A DNA stretch of 64,000 nucleotides from an uncultured Rickettsiales bacterium. GTDB lineage: Bacteria; Pseudomonadota; Alphaproteobacteria; Rickettsiales; SXRF01. The notes under the pieces are model-generated. The model was not told the DNA's origin, did no database searches, and worked only from the letters and a program-made list of their open reading frames with translations. The stretch lies in assembly GCA_964518725.1 (NCBI GenBank), contig CAZFKP010000007.1, positions 8,397-72,396 of the forward strand. The letters run 5' to 3'. This document shows positions 1 through 18,965 of this stretch, piece after piece. A program made the translations under genes and the position numbers. Numbering within the stretch: position 1 is the stretch's first letter; every line of letters begins with the position of its first letter.

Positions 1-1708
1 TTACACCGTTGGAAGCCGCGCCGGTAATCACCGCATCAGGTGCCAACACGCCGGTAGACAGCAGGTTGAACGATACGAACGAGCCACCCAGGCCATTGGT
101 TCTGGTTTGACCCAACGCATCGGTATTGTAGATGGTGCTGGTGTCAGGAACCGTGTTACCACCCGAACCCGTGCCAGTAAAGAAGCTGATGGCACCGGTT
201 TGCTGAGAGTCTGCATAACGGATGGTGATGTTGTTGTTCTCTGCCACCGCAACGATACCGAGCGCGCCAGCATTGTCGCTGGCGTTGATTGCTTCAGCGA
301 TATCTGCAAGCGTATCGGATGCACCTAACGCGCCAGAAATATCAACATAATCCGCACCGTTCACGCTGGCAAAAATCGAGCTGCCGGAAGCGAATGGCGT
401 GGTCGCCGTGCCGCCAACAACGTCAGCCGATGTGCTGCCGATCGCCGCAGCGAGTGACGCAGAAAGCAGACGGGTCGTGCTGGTTGCACCAGAAAGCGTC
501 GTGGTCTGAACACCGGCAGATGTTTTATAGAAACTATCACCGCCGTTGATCGACACGCTGCCGCTGGCATTGCTCAGATTCAACTGGATATTGTAGCCAT
601 TGGTAGAGTCACCGATTAGGCTTGCTTTTACGCCAGTCGTTGCCGAATTACCGTTGATGCCGTTCACAATGTTGGTGAGCGAATCACCTGCACGGAACGT
701 ATAAAGGTCAATCGCCGTGCTGGTTCCTACCTGAACACTCAGCGCATCGCCAGCCAAGAACGGTGCTGTTGCACTTTGCGAGCTGGCTACAACCACCGCA
801 TTGGTGGCACTAGTGAAAGCAGAAACGTTGGTTGCAAACAACGATACCGTTGCACCGCCGTAATTGCCGCCGACGCTTGCCTTATTGCTGGCAACGCCGG
901 TAACATCGAGGGTGAACTTATCGCTGAGCGCACCACCGGTACGGGATGCGATCGTCAGCGTGCTGCCACCCGGGGTCGAGGTATACGTCGCACCACCGAG
1001 CACTTGGGTAAAGGTAGAGGTCGTGATGTCGTTGGTTGCGTTATTGTTGTTGGTGAGCGCCGTGAGTTTAGATGCAAGGTTAGCAACCGTATCCGCCGAC
1101 GTTGCGCCGATCAGGAATTGCTGACGAGCCGTTGACGCCGTGCTGCTGAGCGCGGTTTTTGCCGTGAAGGTCAGGCCGTTGATCTCGATCGTGTCGCCAT
1201 CAACAAGGTTAGAAGCCAGACCAATCGTCGCAACACCTGCAGAAGCTTGCTTGGTAGCATCTTCAATGCGCGAAGAAGTAGAGAGCGAGCCGTCGATCAG
1301 CGATACACCGTTGAAGGTCGTGGTGCTGGTGATGAAGTTGATCTGGTCGGTGAGAGCCTGGAACTCCTGGTTCAGGAAGCCGCGGTCAGAAGCCGACAGG
1401 TTACCCGAAGATGCTTGTACTGCGAGAGTTTTTTGACGTTGAAGAATTTCAGTGACCTGACCGAGCGCACCATCGGCTACCTGCAGCAGCGACACACCTT
1501 GCGAGGCATTTACAAGTGCTTGACGCAACGTGCGTACAGTAGTCGAGAAAGATGTACCGATGGATAGACGCGCTACGTCATCGGATGCTTTGGTGATGAA
1601 GTTACCGGAAGAAAGGCGCGATACGGACGTTGTCGCCGCCGAGCTTGCCTTTGCAATATTAGCCTGCGCGAAATACGCGGAAATATTGGTATTAATTGAG
1701 TTAGCCAT
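1..1708 (-). CDS. fliC: Flagellin, N-terminal and variable region only; the C-terminus lies beyond the left window edge
   Basis: Hand translation from the ATG at 1708-1706 (AGGAGA 5 nt upstream) gives MANSINTNISAYFAQANIAKASSAATTSVSRLSSGNFITKASDDVARLSIGTSFSTTVRTLRQALVNASQGVSLLQVADGALGQVTEILQRQKTLAVQASSGNLSASDRGFLNQEFQALTDQINFI. This is a canonical flagellin N-terminal domain. The stretches translated by hand (about 270 codons from the ATG, plus the last 14 codons) contain no stop. No complete ORF ending at 1708 is listed, which is consistent with the frame staying open to position 2 and explains its absence from the complete-ORF track. The rest is a Thr/Ser/Ala/Gly/Asn-rich variable region. 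Confidence 0.9.
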   Translation of the reverse strand, partial: MANSINTNISAYFAQANIAKASSAATTSVSRLSSGNFITKASDDVARLSIGTSFSTTVRTLRQALVNASQGVSLLQVADGALGQVTEILQRQKTLAVQASSGNLSASDRGFLNQEFQALTDQINFITSTTTFNGVSLIDGSLSTSSRIEDATKQASAGVATIGLASNLVDGDTIEINGLTFTAKTALSSTASTARQQFLIGATSADTVANLASKLTALTNNNNATNDITTSTFTQVLGGATYTSTPGGSTLTIASRTGGALSDKFTLDVTGVASNKASVGGNYGGATVSLFATNVSAFTSATNAVVVASSQSATAPFLAGDALSVQVGTSTAIDLYTFRAGDSLTNIVNGINGNSATTGVKASLIGDSTNGYNIQLNLSNASGSVSINGGDSFYKTSAGVQTTTLSGATSTTRLLSASLAAAIGSTSADVVGGTATTPFASGSSIFASVNGADYVDISGALGASDTLADIAEAINASDNAGALGIVAVAENNNITIRYADSQQTGAISFFTGTGSGGNTVPDTSTIYNTDALGQTRTNGLGGSFVSFNLLSTGVLAPDAVITGAASNGV

Positions 1709-8312: not shown

Positions 8313-9350
8313 ATGCACGCTACCTACAAACAAGCCGGGGTTGATATTGATGCCGGCAATGCGCTGATTGACCGCATTAAGCCGTTCGCCAAAGCGACAC
8401 GCCGCAGTGGCTCGATGGACGAGCTGGGCGGATTTGGCGCGCTGTTCGATCCCAAAGCCGCAGGGTTCAAAGACCCCCTGCTCGTCTCGTCCACCGATGG
8501 CGTCGGCACCAAGCTCAAAATCGCACAAACCGTCGGCAAGCACGATACGATCGGTATCGACCTCGTCGCTATGTGCGTGAACGACCTCGTCGTGCAGGGC
8601 GCCGAGCCGCTCTTTTTCCTCGATTATTTCGCAACCGGGAAACTCAGCGTCGATGTCGCCGCCGATGTGATCAAGGGTATCGCTGAAGGTTGCAAACAGT
8701 CAAACTGTGCCTTAATCGGCGGCGAGACCGCCGAAATGCCGGGCATGTACGCGCCGGGTGAATATGATTTGGCGGGGTTCACGGTCGGCGCCGTTGAACG
8801 CGACCAGCTATTGCCGCGCAACGTTGGCGAAGGCGATGTGGTGCTTGGGCTTGCGTCAAGCGGGGTGCATTCCAATGGCTTTTCGCTGGTGCGCCATATC
8901 ATGGCCGGAGCGGGTGTCGCCTTCGATTCACCGGCGCCTTTTGCCAACGGGAAAAGCTTCGCCGACGTGCTGCTTACCCCTACCCGGCTCTATGTCGGCT
9001 CCTGCCTCAGCGCCTTACGGGCTTTCCCGCAATCGGTGCATGCGTTCGCGCATATTACCGGCGGCGGGTTGCCAGAAAATTTACCGCGGGTGCTACCCAA
9101 ACATCTGGGTGCCATACTTTTCGCGAAGGCTTGGAAAATGCCGGGCGCTTTTGCATGGCTGCAGCAAACCGGGAATGTGCCAATGGCAGATTTATACCGT
9201 ACGTTCAATTGCGGCATCGGCATGGTCGCGGTGGTCGCAAAGACCGATGCGACCGCTATCACCAAGCATCTGGAGGCGGCAGGCGAAACGGTATATGTGT
9301 TAGGCGAGATTACCACACGCGGCGACGAAGCCGTCATCATCCGTGAGTAA
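8313..9350 (+). CDS. purM: Phosphoribosylformylglycinamidine cyclo-ligase (AIR synthetase) PurM
   Basis: 345 aa. Motifs seen: [33 protein letters not shown]. Confidence 0.95.
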
Positions 9351-9927
9351 GAAAAAAGTCGCAGTACTGGTGTCTGGCAGTGGCAGCAATTTGCAAGCGC
9401 TGATTGATGCGGCGTCGGCGCCGGATTATCCGGCGGACATTGCCTTGGTGGTGTCGAACAAACATGAAGCGTTCGGCCTCACCCGCGCAACCAATGCCGG
9501 CATTCCCACCCGCGTTATTTCGCACAAGGAATTTGAATCACGTGAGGCGTTCGACGTAGCAATGGATGCAGCGCTCCAAGAACATCATATCGAGCTGGTT
9601 TGCCTTGCCGGGTTCATGCGCGTGCTATCGCCGTGGTTTGTTGAAAAATGGCAGAGGAAAATGATCAACATCCATCCTTCCCTACTGCCAAAATATAAGG
9701 GATTGCACACGCACCAGCGGGCGATTGATGCCGGTGAGAAAGAAGCCGGATGCACCGTGCATTGGGTAAGCGCCGGGGTGGATGAAGGCAAAATTATCGC
9801 GCAAGCCAGCGTTCCGGTACTGGCAGACGATACGGCGGAAACCCTTGCAGCGCGTGTATTAGAACAGGAACATACAATCTATCCGGCGGCACTTAAGCAA
9901 ATAATCCAAGCAACCGAGCTTCCTTAG
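9343..9927 (+). CDS. purN: Phosphoribosylglycinamide formyltransferase PurN
   Basis: 194 aa. Motifs seen: [15 protein letters not shown] and [13 protein letters not shown]. It overlaps the purM stop by 8 nt. Confidence 0.95.
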
Positions 9928-11056
9928 TCCAGCCGGTTTCTCCATAAATGGATAATGAGAATGCCGCGTCACCAAGATGATCGAGGAAGCGCGACAGGCT
10001 CTGGATGATCCGCACGATTTCTGCTTCCGGCAATGCACCGTACAGAACATGCGCCGACGCCAGCGCGAGGCGGATCGTTGCCAATCGGACGCCGATGAAT
10101 GTGATGCGCTCGACCGCGTCCGCGCCCAATCCGGCAAACGGAAAGAGATTGAGCGACAGTTGCATGGCAAGCACCCGCCGCAACGCGTGGGTATAGTAAT
10201 CACCGGATTCCTGCCACGCCGCACGCAGAGCAGCTAGCGCCCCGGCGCTATCCGGTGAAAGCCGGATGTGCACCTGTTCCCAATCGAGCGTCGCGGCGAG
10301 CGCTTTCTCCATCTCGCCGATGGTCTGGCGCAGGCGAGCGGAAATGGGTTTGTGCGACGACACAATCAGGCCGCATAGCGCGTGCAGCAGGTTGAATGCA
10401 TCTGCCGGTTTTGTCTCTGGCACTGGCACGCGCCCATCGGCCAACCGCAAATAAAGCGGCACCGACTGGTGCCAGCTTGCCGTATCGAGCATGGACATGG
10501 AGCGGGCGACGCTGGAAATACGCGCCAATGCTTTCTCCGGCGTGATGGAGCTATCGAGCGCACACTCCATAAATGCCTGATGCACCTGCATGGCAGAGCC
10601 GCTTTCTATTCCCGCAGGAAGGTAGTTTCTAAGCTGCGACGGCAAACGTTCAATCGCCGCATCTTCCAGCGCAAACGGCGTCGGCAATGCCAGCACCAGG
10701 CGCACGATCTCCGGGCAGGAGGGTGTCCCAGTCATGATTTTCTGGTTTCCAAGTTCACGAGTGACACGCGGGTAAAAATGACAGGCGTCCCCCAGCATTG
10801 CGTCGCCATATTTCTTATGGATGCCGCACAGGCCGTTTTCCATTTTAACGCAATGGCGCGTGGACGAGTCGCGCTGCATCACCGGAATGCCATCGCTTTC
10901 CATATCCACCGCTGCCAGCAACTCCGGCGCATCGGCGCGGTATTTTGCAAGCGTCGCCGCATCCACCTGCATCGACCAGTTCTGGCAGCACGTGTCCTCG
11001 CATGAATCGCCGAGGCACTGGAAATTTTTCATTAGCTGGTTGTGAGTGATCTGCAT
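9893..11056 (-). CDS. fliB: FliB-type flagellin lysine-N-methylase-like protein
   Basis: The N-terminal Cys cluster FQCLGDSCEDTCCQNW, followed by C..MENGLCGIHKKYG...C.FYPR...PSCPE, matches the cysteine pattern of Salmonella FliB. The chosen ATG (11056-11054) overlaps the upstream gene's TGA (ATGA), which implies translational coupling. The ORF track extends to 11131. Confidence 0.75.
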   Translation of the reverse strand: MQITHNQLMKNFQCLGDSCEDTCCQNWSMQVDAATLAKYRADAPELLAAVDMESDGIPVMQRDSSTRHCVKMENGLCGIHKKYGDAMLGDACHFYPRVTRELGNQKIMTGTPSCPEIVRLVLALPTPFALEDAAIERLPSQLRNYLPAGIESGSAMQVHQAFMECALDSSITPEKALARISSVARSMSMLDTASWHQSVPLYLRLADGRVPVPETKPADAFNLLHALCGLIVSSHKPISARLRQTIGEMEKALAATLDWEQVHIRLSPDSAGALAALRAAWQESGDYYTHALRRVLAMQLSLNLFPFAGLGADAVERITFIGVRLATIRLALASAHVLYGALPEAEIVRIIQSLSRFLDHLGDAAFSLSIYGETGWTKEARLLGLFA

Positions 11057-12684
11057 CAATGCACCGTCATTTTCTTGAAGAAGAATACATGCCGTACCAC
11101 CTGCTCTTCTTCCGCCGGATCGGATACCCATTCCTTATGCAGGATAAGCTGGAGCCCTTCAGCCTGCGACACGTCCATCACATAGGAATAGTGATGGCTG
11201 TAGCGGCCATGGTTGGCTACCGAATAGGCAAGGGTCGACGTTTCCTTGTCCAGCATGCAGGCAACGATCGTATCCTGATGCATGACACCGCGCACTGCCT
11301 GGAAGAATGGCTGGAGATTACCAATCCATCGCAAGGCGCCGGTAGCGACGATCAGGTCGAAGGTGGCCTCACTGCCCATCACGTAATCAATAATATCGAG
11401 ATCATAAAGCACATCGTAACGCTTGCTGCGGCGGGCGATTTTCAACATGCCGGGCGTAATATCTACCCCAGCGGAAATCGCAACCATATCTCCCAGATGC
11501 TGCGCGATTACCCCCGTGCCGCAGCCGAGATCAAGCAGGCTCAAATAGCGTTTTCCCTCAAGCTGCGGCAAGCGCCGGAGTTCTTTGGTCAGATACTGCA
11601 CGTGGGGAGCATCGCTTGCGACCACCACCCACGGCTCGAACATATCAATGAACGCACTATAGAATGCGACGATGAATTCACGGGATGCAAATGGTGGCAC
11701 ATCGCCCCCAAACAATGCACGAAGATGCCTCAGCGGAAGCTCGTTCGGGATGCTAGCGATGATCTCACTGAGACGCACAATTCCTTCCCTACCCCGCCCG
11801 GTTTCCTGCATCATCTCCAAAAGACTATACCACGCCAGCACGTGGTCTGGGGCGAGCGCCAGCACGTGGGTGAAGGCTTTCTCACTGGCCTGCACATCGC
11901 CGGATTTCATAAAAATGCCGCCAAGAATCAGCAGGCTCGGCAGATGGGTGGGGTCAGCTTGGAGCGCCTGCAACAAATGGTCGATTCCGCCGCGCTCTTC
12001 ACCTGCTTCCGCCAGCAAAAGCGCCAGGTAGAAATGTGCCTGCACGTGGTTGCGGTTGCACGCAATCGCCTTTCTCAGCAACGCTTCCGAGCGCACGAAT
12101 TCTGCGTTCAGCACGGCAAGCAGCGCCATCACATAGTGTGCCTGGGCATCGTCAGGATGATCCGCAATATATTCCGACAAGAGCCTTTCCGCCGCATCAT
12201 GATTACCAGCCTGTATGTCACATTCAGCCTCATCAACACGGGTATCGACCGCCCCGTCATCACGCACACGCTCATACCATATCCTTGCTTCATCGAATTT
12301 TTCCTGGGCAGCAAAACAATTCGCCATCCACCGGCATGCCTCGGCATCTCGTGGGGAAATCGCCACTGCGCGCTCGAACGCCGCCTGCGCCGCATCATAC
12401 TCCTTGAGCAGATGCAGCATTTGCCCCTGTTGTAAGTGATAGTGCACCACCTGCGCGTCCAACTGCGCGGCAATGGAAGAATAGTCGCGTGCCTTGCGGT
12501 AATTACCGGTTGCCTTAAATATGGACGCAGTAAGGTGGTACCCGCGCGCGGATTGCGGATACTGAATCAGGAGCGATTTGCACAGGTCGGCCGCCTTGTG
12601 CAGGTTTCCCTGCTCAAGTGCCGACTGGGCTTCCTCACAGAGCTGCTGTTCTTCCTGAGGGGACACCATAAAAATCTCTGTCAT
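11056..12684 (-). CDS. TPR-repeat protein fused to a class I SAM-dependent methyltransferase domain
   Basis: The N-terminal ~300 aa contains repeated 34-aa TPR-like units (A..Y...A......G....A...). The C-terminal ~220 aa carries SAM-binding motif I, LLDLGCGTGVIAQHL, followed by GVD acidic-loop and post-I/II motifs. The ATG at 12684 is preferred over the TTG at 12702. Confidence 0.8.
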   Translation of the reverse strand: MTEIFMVSPQEEQQLCEEAQSALEQGNLHKAADLCKSLLIQYPQSARGYHLTASIFKATGNYRKARDYSSIAAQLDAQVVHYHLQQGQMLHLLKEYDAAQAAFERAVAISPRDAEACRWMANCFAAQEKFDEARIWYERVRDDGAVDTRVDEAECDIQAGNHDAAERLLSEYIADHPDDAQAHYVMALLAVLNAEFVRSEALLRKAIACNRNHVQAHFYLALLLAEAGEERGGIDHLLQALQADPTHLPSLLILGGIFMKSGDVQASEKAFTHVLALAPDHVLAWYSLLEMMQETGRGREGIVRLSEIIASIPNELPLRHLRALFGGDVPPFASREFIVAFYSAFIDMFEPWVVVASDAPHVQYLTKELRRLPQLEGKRYLSLLDLGCGTGVIAQHLGDMVAISAGVDITPGMLKIARRSKRYDVLYDLDIIDYVMGSEATFDLIVATGALRWIGNLQPFFQAVRGVMHQDTIVACMLDKETSTLAYSVANHGRYSHHYSYVMDVSQAEGLQLILHKEWVSDPAEEEQVVRHVFFFKKMTVH

Positions 12685-12716
12685 GACATCACACCAGCAC
12701 AAAGGCCGGCAGATGA

Positions 12717-13247
12717 TTAACCGAACATGTGCTGCACTTTATAGGTGTCATTCTGGAAAACATGCTGCACACCGATCTTACGCTCGGCATCGATGAAAAT
12801 CGGCGCACGGGCATTAACCGAAAGCTTCACCTGGTCGGGGCTGCGATGTACCGAAACAATCAACAGCACGGCAAGGTTTTCTTCCTTGATCTGCATGTCG
12901 GCTGCCGTCGCACGGATATCGCTTGCAGCAATGATACTGTTTTCGATTTCCAGCGGCAGAGTGATGAATGACAGGTTATGGTCGTCCAGCGACTGCAGCA
13001 ATTTAAACTGCGCCATTTTGGGGCTGGGGAATGATGAAATAGCGTAACGTGGCTTGTCTGGCATGCCCAGCAACCCGCGTGGAAACAAGACAGCTTTAGT
13101 CGTATCCACAATAACCTCCCCGAAACGCGTTTTAATCGAAATCATGGCCGTGGCGTCCGGTGATCCGGTGCCGGAAGCGAAAGCTGGTTGTCCAAGCATG
13201 GTGAGCGCCGCATTCCCATCGAATCGTGTCGTTGCAATAATATTCAT
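12717..13247 (-). CDS. fliW: Flagellar assembly factor FliW
   Basis: 176 aa. Motifs seen: IKTRFGEVIVD, FPRGLLGMPD, FKLLQSLDDHNLSFITLPL and SVNARAPIFIDAERKIGVQHV, all fitting the FliW family pattern. AAGGAA lies 7 nt upstream of the ATG. The gene starts 17 nt after the flgL stop. Confidence 0.8.
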   Translation of the reverse strand: MNIIATTRFDGNAALTMLGQPAFASGTGSPDATAMISIKTRFGEVIVDTTKAVLFPRGLLGMPDKPRYAISSFPSPKMAQFKLLQSLDDHNLSFITLPLEIENSIIAASDIRATAADMQIKEENLAVLLIVSVHRSPDQVKLSVNARAPIFIDAERKIGVQHVFQNDTYKVQHMFG

Positions 13248-16917: not shown

Positions 16918-17370
16918 TTAAATCCTGCTGTCGAGTGTCACCGAAATTGTTTCGTAAGGCGCGTAGTGTGTTATCCCATCGCCACCGTAGGTTTTGCTGG
17001 TAGTGTGGTCACGAACCACTTCCTTGATCGCAGAAACGATCTTGTGGTTCACTTCCTTGGCAAGCAGCAATTTGCGATGGTTTTCTTTGAGGATATTGTT
17101 GAACACCTCAATCACCCGCTCGAGATCGTTCTTATCCTGGGACGGAATGGTTCCCATCATGTGTGGATGTTTTTCAAGGAGCTTACGCTGCGCTTCCAGA
17201 GCATTGGTGATGAATATTTTCTCGTGCTGTAATTTCTCAATCTGCTTGATTTTCATCATGCCGAGGAGATCGACTTCCTCAGCGAGGAGCTGGGCGAGCC
17301 GCGCAGTGAGCGTGATCACATCCTGAATCTTGATTTCATGCTGCACCGGTAGTTTAGACTGCTGGCTCAT
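16918..17370 (-). CDS. flgN: FlgN-like flagellar export chaperone (putative)
   Basis: About 150 aa, helical and Leu/Glu/Lys-rich (LTARLAQLLAEEVDLLGMMKIKQIEKLQHEK). It sits immediately upstream of flgK. The ATG at 17370 is preferred, whereas the ORF track extends to 17421. Confidence 0.5.
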   Translation of the reverse strand: MSQQSKLPVQHEIKIQDVITLTARLAQLLAEEVDLLGMMKIKQIEKLQHEKIFITNALEAQRKLLEKHPHMMGTIPSQDKNDLERVIEVFNNILKENHRKLLLAKEVNHKIVSAIKEVVRDHTTSKTYGGDGITHYAPYETISVTLDSRI

Positions 17371-17746
17371 ACGCGACCTCCTGGGTTTTAAGCAGCTCGC
17401 TTTGGGCGCGGCTGCGTTCAATCAGTGTTTGTTCAATATTCTTAGCAATTCCTATGCCACCGCCTTTCACAATCGCCTTGGCATATTCATCCACCATCAT
17501 GCTTTTATAGATTTCGTCGGTTTCCTGGTTGCCGAACAGGCTCTCGCCAAGCGAATCTCCGCCCATCATATGTTCCAGCATCTGGCTGATGAACAGCGAC
17601 TCAAACTCGGTGGCAACCATCTTGGCGGATGTTGCGTTCAGCGGACCTTTCGCCGCTTGCTCCAGTTTGCGCGTCGAGGCATCGAGCAAATCGTTACGCA
17701 TCAGGCTGCTGTTCAGCGCATTGGCCAGTGTTCCTGCCTGGATCAT
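17354..17746 (-). CDS. flgJ: Rod-binding protein (FlgJ N-terminal domain only; CheL-like)
   Basis: 130 aa with the rod-binding motif ATEFESLFISQMLEHM. There is no muramidase domain, as is usual in alphaproteobacteria. Confidence 0.75.
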   Translation of the reverse strand: MIQAGTLANALNSSLMRNDLLDASTRKLEQAAKGPLNATSAKMVATEFESLFISQMLEHMMGGDSLGESLFGNQETDEIYKSMMVDEYAKAIVKGGGIGIAKNIEQTLIERSRAQSELLKTQEVAYEPAV

Positions 17747-17750
17747 GGGA

Positions 17751-18965
17751 CTACCTCGTCACAATCTCTGCCTGCAGAGCGCCGGCAGCTTTAATGGTTT
17801 GCAGAATGGTAATCAGGTCACGCGGCCCAACACCCAGGGCATTCAGACCCGCCACCAGGTCTTTCAACGTGGCGCCACGCTCCATCACGGCGAGCTGTTT
17901 ACCCGGCGAGCTATCAACCATCACTTTGGTTTGCGGAACCACCACCGTCTCGGCTCCCTCCGGCGCGAATGGCGCTGGTTGCGACACTTGCGGCGCTTCC
18001 TCGATACGCACCACCAGGTTTCCTTGCGCGACCGCCACCGTATCAATTTTCACATTCTCGCCCATCACGATGGTACCGGATGCTTCGTCGATGACGATTT
18101 TCGCGATCTGGTCAGTAGCGACCGGCAGTCGCTCAAGATCGGCGAGCAGCTGGGTGACGTTATTCTGGTAAATGGCAGGAACAGTGAGCTGGATAGTGCC
18201 GGGATCGAGGACATTGGCAACCCCCGGCCCGATATTGGTATTGATGGCATTGGCAACTTCCTGCGCGGTCGTGACGTCCGGATTGCGGAGCGACATTTTC
18301 AATTCCGGCAGGTTATTGAGAGCAAATTCGATTTCTTTCTCGACCACAGCACCGCTGGCAATAAACCCGGTGGTGGGAACCCCCTTGGTCACCGTAGTCG
18401 CCTGCCCTTCCGCCCTGAAACCGCCGATGGAGAGCGTCCCCTGCGCGACAGCGTAAACTTCGCTATCCGCGCCATAGAGGGGCGTCGCAAGCAAAGTGCC
18501 TCCGCTTAAATCCTTGGCGTCACCCATGGCACTGACGGTCACGTCGATGCGGCTGCCGCTGCGCGCAAACGGGGGAAGTTTTGCGGTCACGGTGACGGCG
18601 GCAACGTTCTTGGTTTTCAGTTCCGTGCCACGGGTGTTCACGCCTTGCCGCTCGAGGAATGCGATCAGGCTTTGTTCGGTGAATGCGCTATTCTTGAGTT
18701 TATCGCCAGTACCATTCAAGCCAACGACCAGGCCATATCCCATCAGCATATTTTCGCGTACGCCTTCAAAATTGACGATGTCCTTGATGCGCGCATCCGC
18801 ACGCGCCGGCTGCATCACCAACATCAGGTAAGCAAGCAACAACAGCATAAAACCGAACGTCATGCCAAACCCCTGCAACGCCACACGCCCCACCAGATTG
18901 GCGGCAGTCACCGCCGGAGTCTGTATGGCATGGTTTGAAGCGTAGGCTGGATGCGTTGTCTGCAT
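17751..18965 (-). CDS. flgI: Flagellar P-ring protein FlgI
   Basis: The signal-like segment MTFGFMLLLLAYLMLVMQPARA is followed by RIKDIVNFEGVRENMLMGYGLVVGLNGTGD. An alternative start at 18863 would remove a 34-aa N-extension. Confidence 0.9.
   Translation of the reverse strand: MQTTHPAYASNHAIQTPAVTAANLVGRVALQGFGMTFGFMLLLLAYLMLVMQPARADARIKDIVNFEGVRENMLMGYGLVVGLNGTGDKLKNSAFTEQSLIAFLERQGVNTRGTELKTKNVAAVTVTAKLPPFARSGSRIDVTVSAMGDAKDLSGGTLLATPLYGADSEVYAVAQGTLSIGGFRAEGQATTVTKGVPTTGFIASGAVVEKEIEFALNNLPELKMSLRNPDVTTAQEVANAINTNIGPGVANVLDPGTIQLTVPAIYQNNVTQLLADLERLPVATDQIAKIVIDEASGTIVMGENVKIDTVAVAQGNLVVRIEEAPQVSQPAPFAPEGAETVVVPQTKVMVDSSPGKQLAVMERGATLKDLVAGLNALGVGPRDLITILQTIKAAGALQAEIVTR

Follow-up and report, generated by a model that had tools for sequence, protein, structure and literature searches.

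The 64,000-nucleotide (nt) stretch of DNA analysed here, the window, comes from an uncultured Rickettsiales bacterium and carries on its minus strand a flagellar operon in the order flgK, flgL, fliW, TPR-MT and fliB. TPR-MT is the name we use for a gene, and for its product, that combines an array of tetratricopeptide repeats (TPRs) with a class I S-adenosylmethionine (SAM)-dependent methyltransferase domain, and fliB encodes a protein of the flagellin lysine-N-methylase family. The link between TPR-MT and the flagellar filament operon is real and old, and comparison with related loci identifies fliB as the resident gene after fliW and TPR-MT as an optional insert. The explanation that we favour, and to which we give about even chances, is that TPR-MT would act as an accessory flagellin methyltransferase guided by its TPR arm, in the manner of the glycosyltransferase FlmG. 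FliB of Salmonella methylates flagellin lysines, and FliW binds flagellin; to our knowledge FliB is the only enzyme known for flagellin methylation, its chemistry is unusual, and its biological role is understood in Salmonella only, where it concerns adhesion and invasion.

TPR-MT between fliW and fliB in divergent genomes

The original prediction, made from the letters of this DNA, had placed three same-strand genes directly after flgL (fliW, a TPR-methyltransferase gene and a gene of FliB type), and all three are found on the minus strand at the positions then given (Table 1). Their spacing is tight: flgK and flgL are separated by 2 nt, flgL and fliW by 17 nt, as had been read at the outset, and fliW and TPR-MT by 32 nt, or by 47 nt if the second ATG of TPR-MT is used. 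Two details required correction. The methyltransferase, announced as a protein of 543 amino acids (aa), has 542 aa from the first ATG (12684) or 537 aa from the second (12669), of which the second fits the orthologues of 536-540 aa better and corresponds to the 537 aa of the public gene calls on the identical contigs L131/L132. The junction with fliB, described as an ATGA overlap, is TGATG, in which the stop and start codons share a single base.

The same succession of fliW, TPR-MT and fliB was encountered in uncultured Alphaproteobacteria at least 17 times, counting independent contigs or genomes. Every flagellar-type TPR-MT examined is flanked by fliW and fliB: in the window (L131/L132), L001/L002, L003, L004, L133, L136 and L137, and in a further eight loci (L085, L086, L089, L091, L093, L094, L097 and L099), where it is immediately upstream of fliB. 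The contigs L001, L003, L004 and L133 read (flgI-flgJ-x-)flgK-flgL-fliW-TPR-MT-fliB, and their TPR-MT proteins share 64%, 51%, 26% and 21% identity, respectively, with that of the window, the placement being kept where identity is only 21-30%. Flagellar-type TPR-MT loci usually continue after fliB with one or two giant flagellin genes followed by fliD and fliS, as in L004 and L133, and two NCBI metagenome-assembled genomes, one of them labelled Rickettsiales bacterium, show on megabase contigs the series flgI...fliW-TPR-MT(540 aa)-fliB-flagellin(1189 aa)-x-fliD-fliS-fliK. A flagellin of 1189 aa is encoded in the TPR-MT-positive genome GCA_048537145.1. A search with the whole protein, in which the candidates were crowded by generic TPR proteins and which gives family size as a lower bound, listed at least 15 proteins at 48-68% identity before values fell to <30%, and for 11 of 15 close orthologues the longest contig is equal in size to that of a FliB homologue. 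Since the arrangement recurs over many divergent contigs, chance juxtaposition can be ruled out.

Coupling of TPR-MT to fliB is equally close in the relatives, with start-stop overlaps of TAATG in L085, ATGA in L133 and TTGA in L001 and gaps of 5-6 nt in L086, L089 and L091. Overlap or near-abutment of this kind suggests co-translation and nothing more, and the stoichiometric coupling to FliB that had been proposed was overstated. In L094 the spacer between the two genes extends over ~95 nt and contains a long imperfect inverted repeat (CATCCTGAGCGAGCGTAGCGAGTCGAAGGATC ... GATCCCTCGACTTCGCTCAGGATG; L094:1294-1402) that resembles repetitive extragenic palindromic (REP) elements or miniature inverted-repeat transposable elements (MITEs).

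The TPR and methyltransferase parts that had been recognized in the sequence, the latter from its LLDLGCGTG motif, were both recovered with Pfam, the TPR families alongside Methyltransf_11 at 43.9 bits (cut-off 21.2, residues 384-474). Methyltransf_12, _25, _31 and _23 also exceeded their gathering scores, the methyltransferase matches together spanning residues ~365-511, and no Glyco_transf_41 match was obtained in Pfam. An AlphaFold2 (AF2) model computed from a 19-sequence alignment reached a predicted local distance difference test (pLDDT) score of 91.3 and a predicted template modelling (pTM) score of 0.85 and contains nine TPRs. When the whole model was compared with Foldseek, only TPR proteins were returned, the best being the TPR domains of SPINDLY and human OGT (E 1e-14 to 1e-11). 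The methyltransferase domain modelled separately (pLDDT 91.9) gave 1424 Foldseek matches in the PDB at E<=0.001, and the top 50 all have the class I methyltransferase fold, so that, on the model, assignment of residues 335-540 to this fold is certain.

Conservation within this domain points to function. D385, G387, C388 and G391 of motif I are invariant in 19 homologues, and across ~20 aligned sequences motif I, the acidic residues D408 and D430 and the GRYxH core of a C-terminal GRYxHxxxY motif (R494, Y495, H497, Y501) are invariant or nearly so. Because motif I, D408, D430 and GRYxHxxxY are kept in the homologues, a working enzyme can be argued, and TPR-MT looks catalytically active.

The last gene of the operon encodes a genuine member of the FliB family, with a predicted methylase activity. 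Its product scores 143.2 bits against the NCBIfam model NF038110 'flagellin lysine-N-methylase' (cut-off 85) over profile positions 4-365 of 373 and has no match in the Pfam copy searched; the assignment is based on the NCBIfam score together with precomputed PF27117 FliB_C matches in relatives. It contains the CX4CX3CC motif whose cysteines are the ligands of the catalytic [4Fe-4S] cluster in Salmonella FliB (PMC8598068). In the window these are C14, C19, C23 and C24, which are nearly invariant, and C69, C77, C92 and C114 are invariant in 27 homologues, which makes eight conserved cysteines, counted among the homologues of the window protein, and matches the number reported for Salmonella FliB (PMC8598068). 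The FliB-type reading of this gene thus stands. A protein 100% identical to it is present in public data (P0057), and a sequence search of the PDB returned no FliB-related structure.

Variable occupancy of the fliW-fliB junction

A metagenome scan anchored on FliB yielded 46 loci, annotated with hidden Markov models (HMMs) built in this analysis, of which 33 were informative. TPR-MT is present directly upstream of fliB in eight of these 33. In the opposite direction, all four loci anchored on TPR-MT (L001, L003, L004 and L133) have fliB directly downstream, as does every other flagellar-type TPR-MT locus where the contig reaches that far. The original prediction had treated both enzymes as one module fused to flgK-flgL-fliW, a view replaced here by a resident fliB with an optional neighbour. 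The asymmetry in occurrence between the two genes is compatible with TPR-MT acting on the product of FliB, for example by converting mono- to di- or tri-methyl-lysine, and equally compatible with a shared substrate combined with a shared insertion hot spot. A dependence of FliB on TPR-MT was rejected, given that most related operons are without TPR-MT and that Salmonella FliB alone suffices for activity in vitro (PMC8598068). In L093 the TPR-MT gene is duplicated in tandem (L093:2-3178, plus strand), and the second copy shows either an internal deletion among its TPRs or a frameshift.

In a neighbour-joining (NJ) tree of FliB, TPR-MT-positive loci appear on shallow and deep branches, and a single recent insertion was rejected on this distribution, the tree being midpoint-rooted and having no support values. 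Similarity values between pairs of TPR-MT proteins broadly follow those between the FliB proteins. An ancient acquisition of TPR-MT followed by repeated loss would fit these sequence comparisons, and transfer between lineages is possible. The neighbouring genes diverge far more slowly than TPR-MT, and within TPR-MT the methyltransferase part changes more slowly than the TPR part: between the window and L086, identity is 27% for the TPR part, 35% for the methyltransferase domain and 55% for FliB. Such fast divergence is what would be expected of a module that tracks a hypervariable substrate.

Related loci bring other modification genes to the same region. L106 and L108, both without TPR-MT, carry within a few kb of fliB genes for TPR proteins fused to glycosyltransferases: L106:12025-14181 and L108:16331-18457, both on the minus strand, encode proteins of 719 and 709 aa with a family 41 glycosyltransferase (GT41) domain (Glyco_transf_41, ~300 bits), and L108:12518-14182 (plus strand) encodes a TPR protein with a GT9-like domain. 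The domain content of these genes suggests alternative TPR-guided modifications of flagellin. In L114, the gene that immediately follows fliB and precedes a flagellin gene (start ~13040) codes for 573 aa (L114:11104-12822, plus strand), with TPRs in the N-terminal part and a sulfotransferase domain at the C terminus (Sulfotransfer_3, 125 bits). By these domains its product is a candidate flagellin sulfotransferase; we know of no report of flagellin sulfation. An 8-kb insert separates fliW from fliB in L104 (L104:1998-9992), with a 659-aa GSCFA+Methyltransf_23 protein, a second GSCFA protein, a GT8-like protein and two TPR proteins of 571 and 520 aa, the C-terminal domains of both of which had no Pfam match. 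The notion advanced originally, of an FlmG-like architecture with an exchanged catalytic module, fits these observations, since the relatives place TPR enzymes with GT41, GT9-like or sulfotransferase domains at the same site, and it also finds support in the domain layout of TPR-MT itself.

Possible substrates of TPR-MT and competing explanations

In the explanation we favour, the nine-TPR, OGT-like superhelix would capture, in the cytoplasm, a substrate of flagellar export that is either unfolded or bound to a chaperone and has yet to be exported. This substrate would most likely be flagellin, which is also bound by FliW, the product of the gene just upstream, and the TPR arm would present it to the class I SAM-dependent methyltransferase domain at the C terminus. 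TPR-MT would be co-transcribed, and probably co-translated, with fliB, the gene of a [4Fe-4S]/SAM flagellin lysine methylase, and where TPR-MT is present flagellin would receive a second methyl mark, either through further methylation of the monomethyl-lysine made by FliB or on a different residue. The flagellins encoded in the vicinity of fliB are giant (566-1219 aa) and rich in Ser+Thr (24-28%), with 1-2.7% Lys and no Cys, in a set that comprises those downstream of fliB in L085, L086, L088, L090, L100, L121, L125 and L136 and the one at positions 1-1708 (minus strand) of the window. In the window no flagellin gene follows fliB directly; this last one is found ~8 kb away at the left edge, in the same orientation, and the part of it that is covered has 1.8% Lys and 27% Ser+Thr. 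FliB probably acts on its product, which is also a candidate substrate for TPR-MT. No description of a TPR-methyltransferase acting on flagellar filament proteins was found in the literature searched, in agreement with what had been supposed at the outset.

Several observations weigh against this explanation. TPR-MT is dispensable, as fliW abuts fliB directly in 23 of the 33 informative loci, and in L092 a TPR-only open reading frame (ORF) of 226 aa lies between fliW and fliB (L092:5004-5684, plus strand); it corresponds to TPR-MT residues 8-232, the methyltransferase part having been deleted, and on its sequence may be either a decay intermediate or a stand-alone adaptor. The amino-acid composition of the flagellins is the same in TPR-MT-positive and TPR-MT-negative loci, and the similarity of the TPR domain is of a generic kind. 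The Foldseek list for the methyltransferase domain is flat (E 2e-11 to 5e-10, TM-score ~0.6, identity <=18%), and its top matches mix enzymes that methylate proteins at the N terminus or at histidine (NTMT1, NRMT2, METTL9) with METTL6, pavine N-methyltransferase, ToxA and UbiG, which act on tRNA or small molecules, so that fold comparison does not separate a protein from a small-molecule target.

The wider family to which the methyltransferase domain belongs adds to these points. A profile of the flagellar methyltransferase domain retrieves at least 3070 proteins at E<=1e-15, and the match includes the N-terminal helical extension and the C-terminal RYxH motif. This family is very large and uncharacterised, with typical members of 220-390 aa that carry zero to four TPRs and occur in many phyla. 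Many of them bear the Joint Genome Institute (JGI) label 'predicted TPR repeat methyltransferase', which we take to be COG4976, and the literature searched contained no paper on a family of this name and no characterised member. Full-length matches to the domain occur in ~40 genome loci. None of 80 genome loci of the wider family has FliB, FliW, FlgK, FlgL, FlgI or flagellin within 8 kb; these are the matches listed in the genome scan, all of them distant homologues (<=28% identity) with no close orthologues among them. Because the 80 loci are without flagellar neighbours, no function can be transferred from the wider family to TPR-MT, and the neighbours of its non-flagellar members have no common theme. 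As for gene neighbourhood, to which the original prediction had looked for a verdict, the flagellar-type TPR-MT is placed between fliW and fliB in every case examined, and the wider family, in the 80 loci listed, is placed outside flagellar loci.

An exhaustive profile search against 1.84 billion representatives returned ~32 clusters (at 50% identity) of proteins of 532-583 aa that match the whole profile in one stretch, together with eight tandem TPR-MT-TPR-MT proteins of 743-1072 aa (P0307, P0351, P0360, P0362, P0371, P0373, P0379 and P0421). Among the 147 representative proteins newly returned by this search there was no TPR-MT-FliB fusion, the longer ones being tandem duplicates. We treat the flagellar TPR-MT as a distinct subfamily on account of its expanded array of nine TPRs, its length of ~540 aa and its fixed address between fliW and fliB.

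Four other explanations were weighed. The first is that the TPR arm recruits another flagellar or regulatory protein as the substrate, namely FlgK, FlgL, FliW (or its partner CsrA) or FliB itself. TPR-MT shares its operon with flgK, flgL and fliW, the termini of FlgK and FlgL are flagellin-like, as the Flagellin_N match in FlgL illustrates, and the independence of flagellin composition from the presence of TPR-MT noted above would be accommodated. We nevertheless hold this to be unlikely, since TPR-MT is invariably next to fliB and no substrate of FliB other than flagellin is known (PMC8598068), since flagellin genes follow directly in most relatives, and since FlgK, FlgL and FliW are equally present in the 23 loci that are without TPR-MT.

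A second possibility, which we rank below the first as decidedly unlikely, is that TPR-MT methylates a glycan, or a sugar-nucleotide precursor of one, that decorates the Ser/Thr-rich flagellin, the TPR arm only holding the enzyme at the site. The Ser+Thr content of the flagellins, the TPR-glycosyltransferases by fliB in related loci and the methyltransferase domains fused to GT41 flagellin glycosyltransferases in enterobacteria (PMC4875605) would all agree with it, and a PDB sequence search with TPR-MT includes sugar N,N-dimethyltransferases at E ~1e-6. These last matches, however, belong to a generic class I list, the operons of the window, L001, L003, L004, L133 and L136 contain no glycosyltransferase or sugar-biosynthesis gene, and the rest of the window is housekeeping save for one epimerase and one AT3-SGNH acyltransferase ~30 kb away.

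Third, TPR-MT could be mainly an adaptor or chaperone whose TPR arm holds flagellin for FliB or times its export, methyl transfer being secondary or lost. The TPR-only ORF that L092 keeps at the same position and the binding of flagellins by the TPR domain of FlmG alone (PMC7591256) speak for such a role. The L092 ORF may however be a mere decay intermediate, FliB occurs without any TPR protein in most related loci, and even very divergent copies keep the SAM-binding and C-terminal motifs unchanged, which argues for selection on catalysis; we regard this alternative as highly unlikely. The least probable is a passenger without any flagellar role, a member of a widespread family that settled at an intergenic site tolerant of insertion and is carried along there. 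The non-flagellar contexts of the wider family speak for it, as does the fact that TPR-MT is missing from most related loci and sometimes degraded, but its insertion point, orientation, tight coupling to fliB and motifs are kept down to 21-30% identity and its similarity values broadly follow those of FliB; a neutral hitch-hiker would not be expected to last through such divergence.

Returning to TPR-MT as a TPR-targeted flagellin methyltransferase, a broader form of this explanation would have flagellin methylated by two mechanistically unrelated enzymes and the fliW/fliB/flagellin junction serving as a cassette site, at which methyl, glycosyl and sulfo chemistries, the last suggested by the TPR-sulfotransferase of L114, are exchanged on a single TPR scaffold that binds flagellin. 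We consider this version tentative and on balance doubtful. If it holds, the cassette site would generate a diversity of filament surfaces comparable to O-antigen variation. A conventional second methyltransferase, targeted by its TPR arm and genetically tied to fliB, would in itself offer a first way to study combinatorial methylation of a bacterial filament. The principle shared by FlmG, Maf and OGT, in which target choice falls to a TPR arm and the chemistry to a swappable domain, would extend to methylation and perhaps to sulfation, and the orphan 'TPR repeat methyltransferase' family would gain its first testable substrate. The presence/absence polymorphism of TPR-MT among close relatives provides a ready-made comparison. 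Beyond gene order and domain content, all of this, including flagellin binding by the TPR arm, the protein nature of the substrate and the interplay with FliB, is what we infer for organisms that are uncultured.

Genomic setting and comparison with known systems

The order flgI, flgJ-like gene, flgN-like gene upstream of flgK is the same in relatives, flgK is syntenic in every related locus examined, and fliX and dksA are divergent genes near the upstream flagellar genes of the window. The NCBIfam FliW models match the fliW product at E ~1e-17, under their equivalog cut-offs. The 3' end of fliB overlaps the convergent purN gene (9343-9927, plus strand) by 35 nt (window 9893-9927), and no terminator-like structure was found between the 3' ends of these two genes.

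Table 1. Features of the flagellar operon and its surroundings in the window, with the evidence for each
Feature	Position	Strand	Evidence
flgI	17751-18965	-	phmmer match to ORFs called FlgI (PF02119) in L001
flgJ-like rod-binding gene	17354-17746	-	Pfam Rod-binding
flgN-like gene	ATG 17369, end 16918	-	weak Pfam FlgN match
flgK (hook-filament junction protein 1), 906 aa	14182-16902	-	Pfam FlgK_D1 148.6 bits and Flg_bbr_C
flgL (hook-filament junction protein 3), 304 aa	13265-14179	-	Pfam Flagellin_N 36.4 bits
fliW (flagellin-binding assembly factor), 176 aa	12717-13247	-	Pfam PF02623 59.7 bits
TPR-MT gene (TPR array and class I SAM methyltransferase)	11056-12684	-	Pfam TPR families and methyltransferase families
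TPR superhelix of TPR-MT, predicted nine helix pairs and capping helix, residues 12-325	11710-12651	-	AF2 secondary structure
Methyltransferase domain of TPR-MT, residues 335-540, predicted two N-terminal helices and seven-strand Rossmann-like fold	11065-11682	-	domain model, Foldseek
SAM-binding motif I LLDLGCGTG of TPR-MT, residues 383-391	11512-11538	-	sequence
TPR-MT stop (TGA) / fliB start (ATG) junction TGATG, one shared base	11054-11058	-	sequence
fliB, flagellin lysine-N-methylase family, 387 aa	9893-11056	-	NCBIfam NF038110
FliB CX4CX3CC motif (C14, C19, C23, C24)	10985-11017	-	regular expression, CLGDSCEDTCC, residues 14-24
Flagellin gene, N-terminal 569 codons, runs off the window	1-1708	-	Pfam Flagellin_N 115 bits and Flagellin_IN; phmmer match to L004 flagellins

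Expression with the late flagellar genes, as originally proposed, is plausible. Scans of the operon for sigma-70 promoters and terminators performed no better than on shuffled sequence, and sigma-54 pattern matches across the window were at chance level. One exact match to the sigma-54-type -24/-12 pattern, TGGCATAGGAATTGC, occurs at window positions 17445-17459 (minus strand) inside the flgJ-like gene at its 3' end, and the flgN-like ATG (17369) follows 76-90 nt downstream; by its sequence the match is a possible promoter for flgN-flgK-flgL-fliW-TPR-MT-fliB.

In the clade of the window, an 8-kb housekeeping block (purN, purM, DUF2066, PerM-like, hda, glnD and eamA) parts fliB from the flagellin gene. 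The motB-motA stator pair (MotB_plug/OmpA; MotA_ExbB) is situated at window positions 31615-33209 (minus strand), ~20 kb from the flagellar operon and among housekeeping genes. A two-piece (permuted) tmRNA gene was located at window positions 29052-29422 (minus strand; Rfam RF01849, 205.8 bits), and this two-piece alphaproteobacterial tmRNA confirms the alphaproteobacterial origin of the window. Between the flagellin gene and fliD, three related loci share a conserved ORF of 120-134 aa with no Pfam match (L004:18414-18818, L133:12890-13270 and L136:12996-13358), whose product may be FlaG-like.

Among known systems, FliB of Salmonella (PMC8598068, PMC7181671) resembles TPR-MT in its use of SAM, and in the window the two families share an operon. 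FliB has no Rossmann or SET fold and works with a [4Fe-4S] cluster bound by CX4CX3CC (PMC8598068), whereas TPR-MT would be an unrelated Rossmann-fold enzyme equipped with a TPR arm. Members of the 'predicted TPR repeat methyltransferase' family have the methyltransferase domain in common with TPR-MT and differ from it in size, TPR number and genomic context.

Class I methyltransferase modules inside flagellin-modification loci have a precedent in the flagellin glycosylation islands of enterobacteria, which are reported to encode TPR-bearing GT41 enzymes with fused methyltransferase domains and, in Pectobacterium wasabiae FMI2, the stand-alone SAM methyltransferase SmtA (PMC4875605). Those enterobacterial enzymes are sequence predictions only and are either fused to a glycosyltransferase or devoid of a TPR arm, while TPR-MT combines TPRs with a methyltransferase and has no glycosyltransferase part. 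OGT and SPINDLY, the best structural matches to the TPR superhelix, likewise use a TPR solenoid that feeds protein substrates to a C-terminal transferase; TPR-MT is without their GT41 catalytic domain, and the likeness is confined to the repeat array (14-22% identity).

A parallel in layout is offered by FlmG of Caulobacter crescentus, a flagellin O-glycosyltransferase in which the TPR domain (residues 1-313) is necessary and sufficient for flagellin binding and binds several flagellins when alone, and the catalytic domain alone binds none (PMC7591256). Like TPR-MT, FlmG is alphaproteobacterial, cytoplasmic and encoded with flagellar genes, and in both an N-terminal TPR domain of ~310-325 aa precedes a C-terminal catalytic domain. 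The catalytic domain is a GT-B glycosyltransferase in FlmG and a class I SAM methyltransferase in TPR-MT, and judged by this layout TPR-MT is an architectural analogue of FlmG and not a member of the FlmG class.

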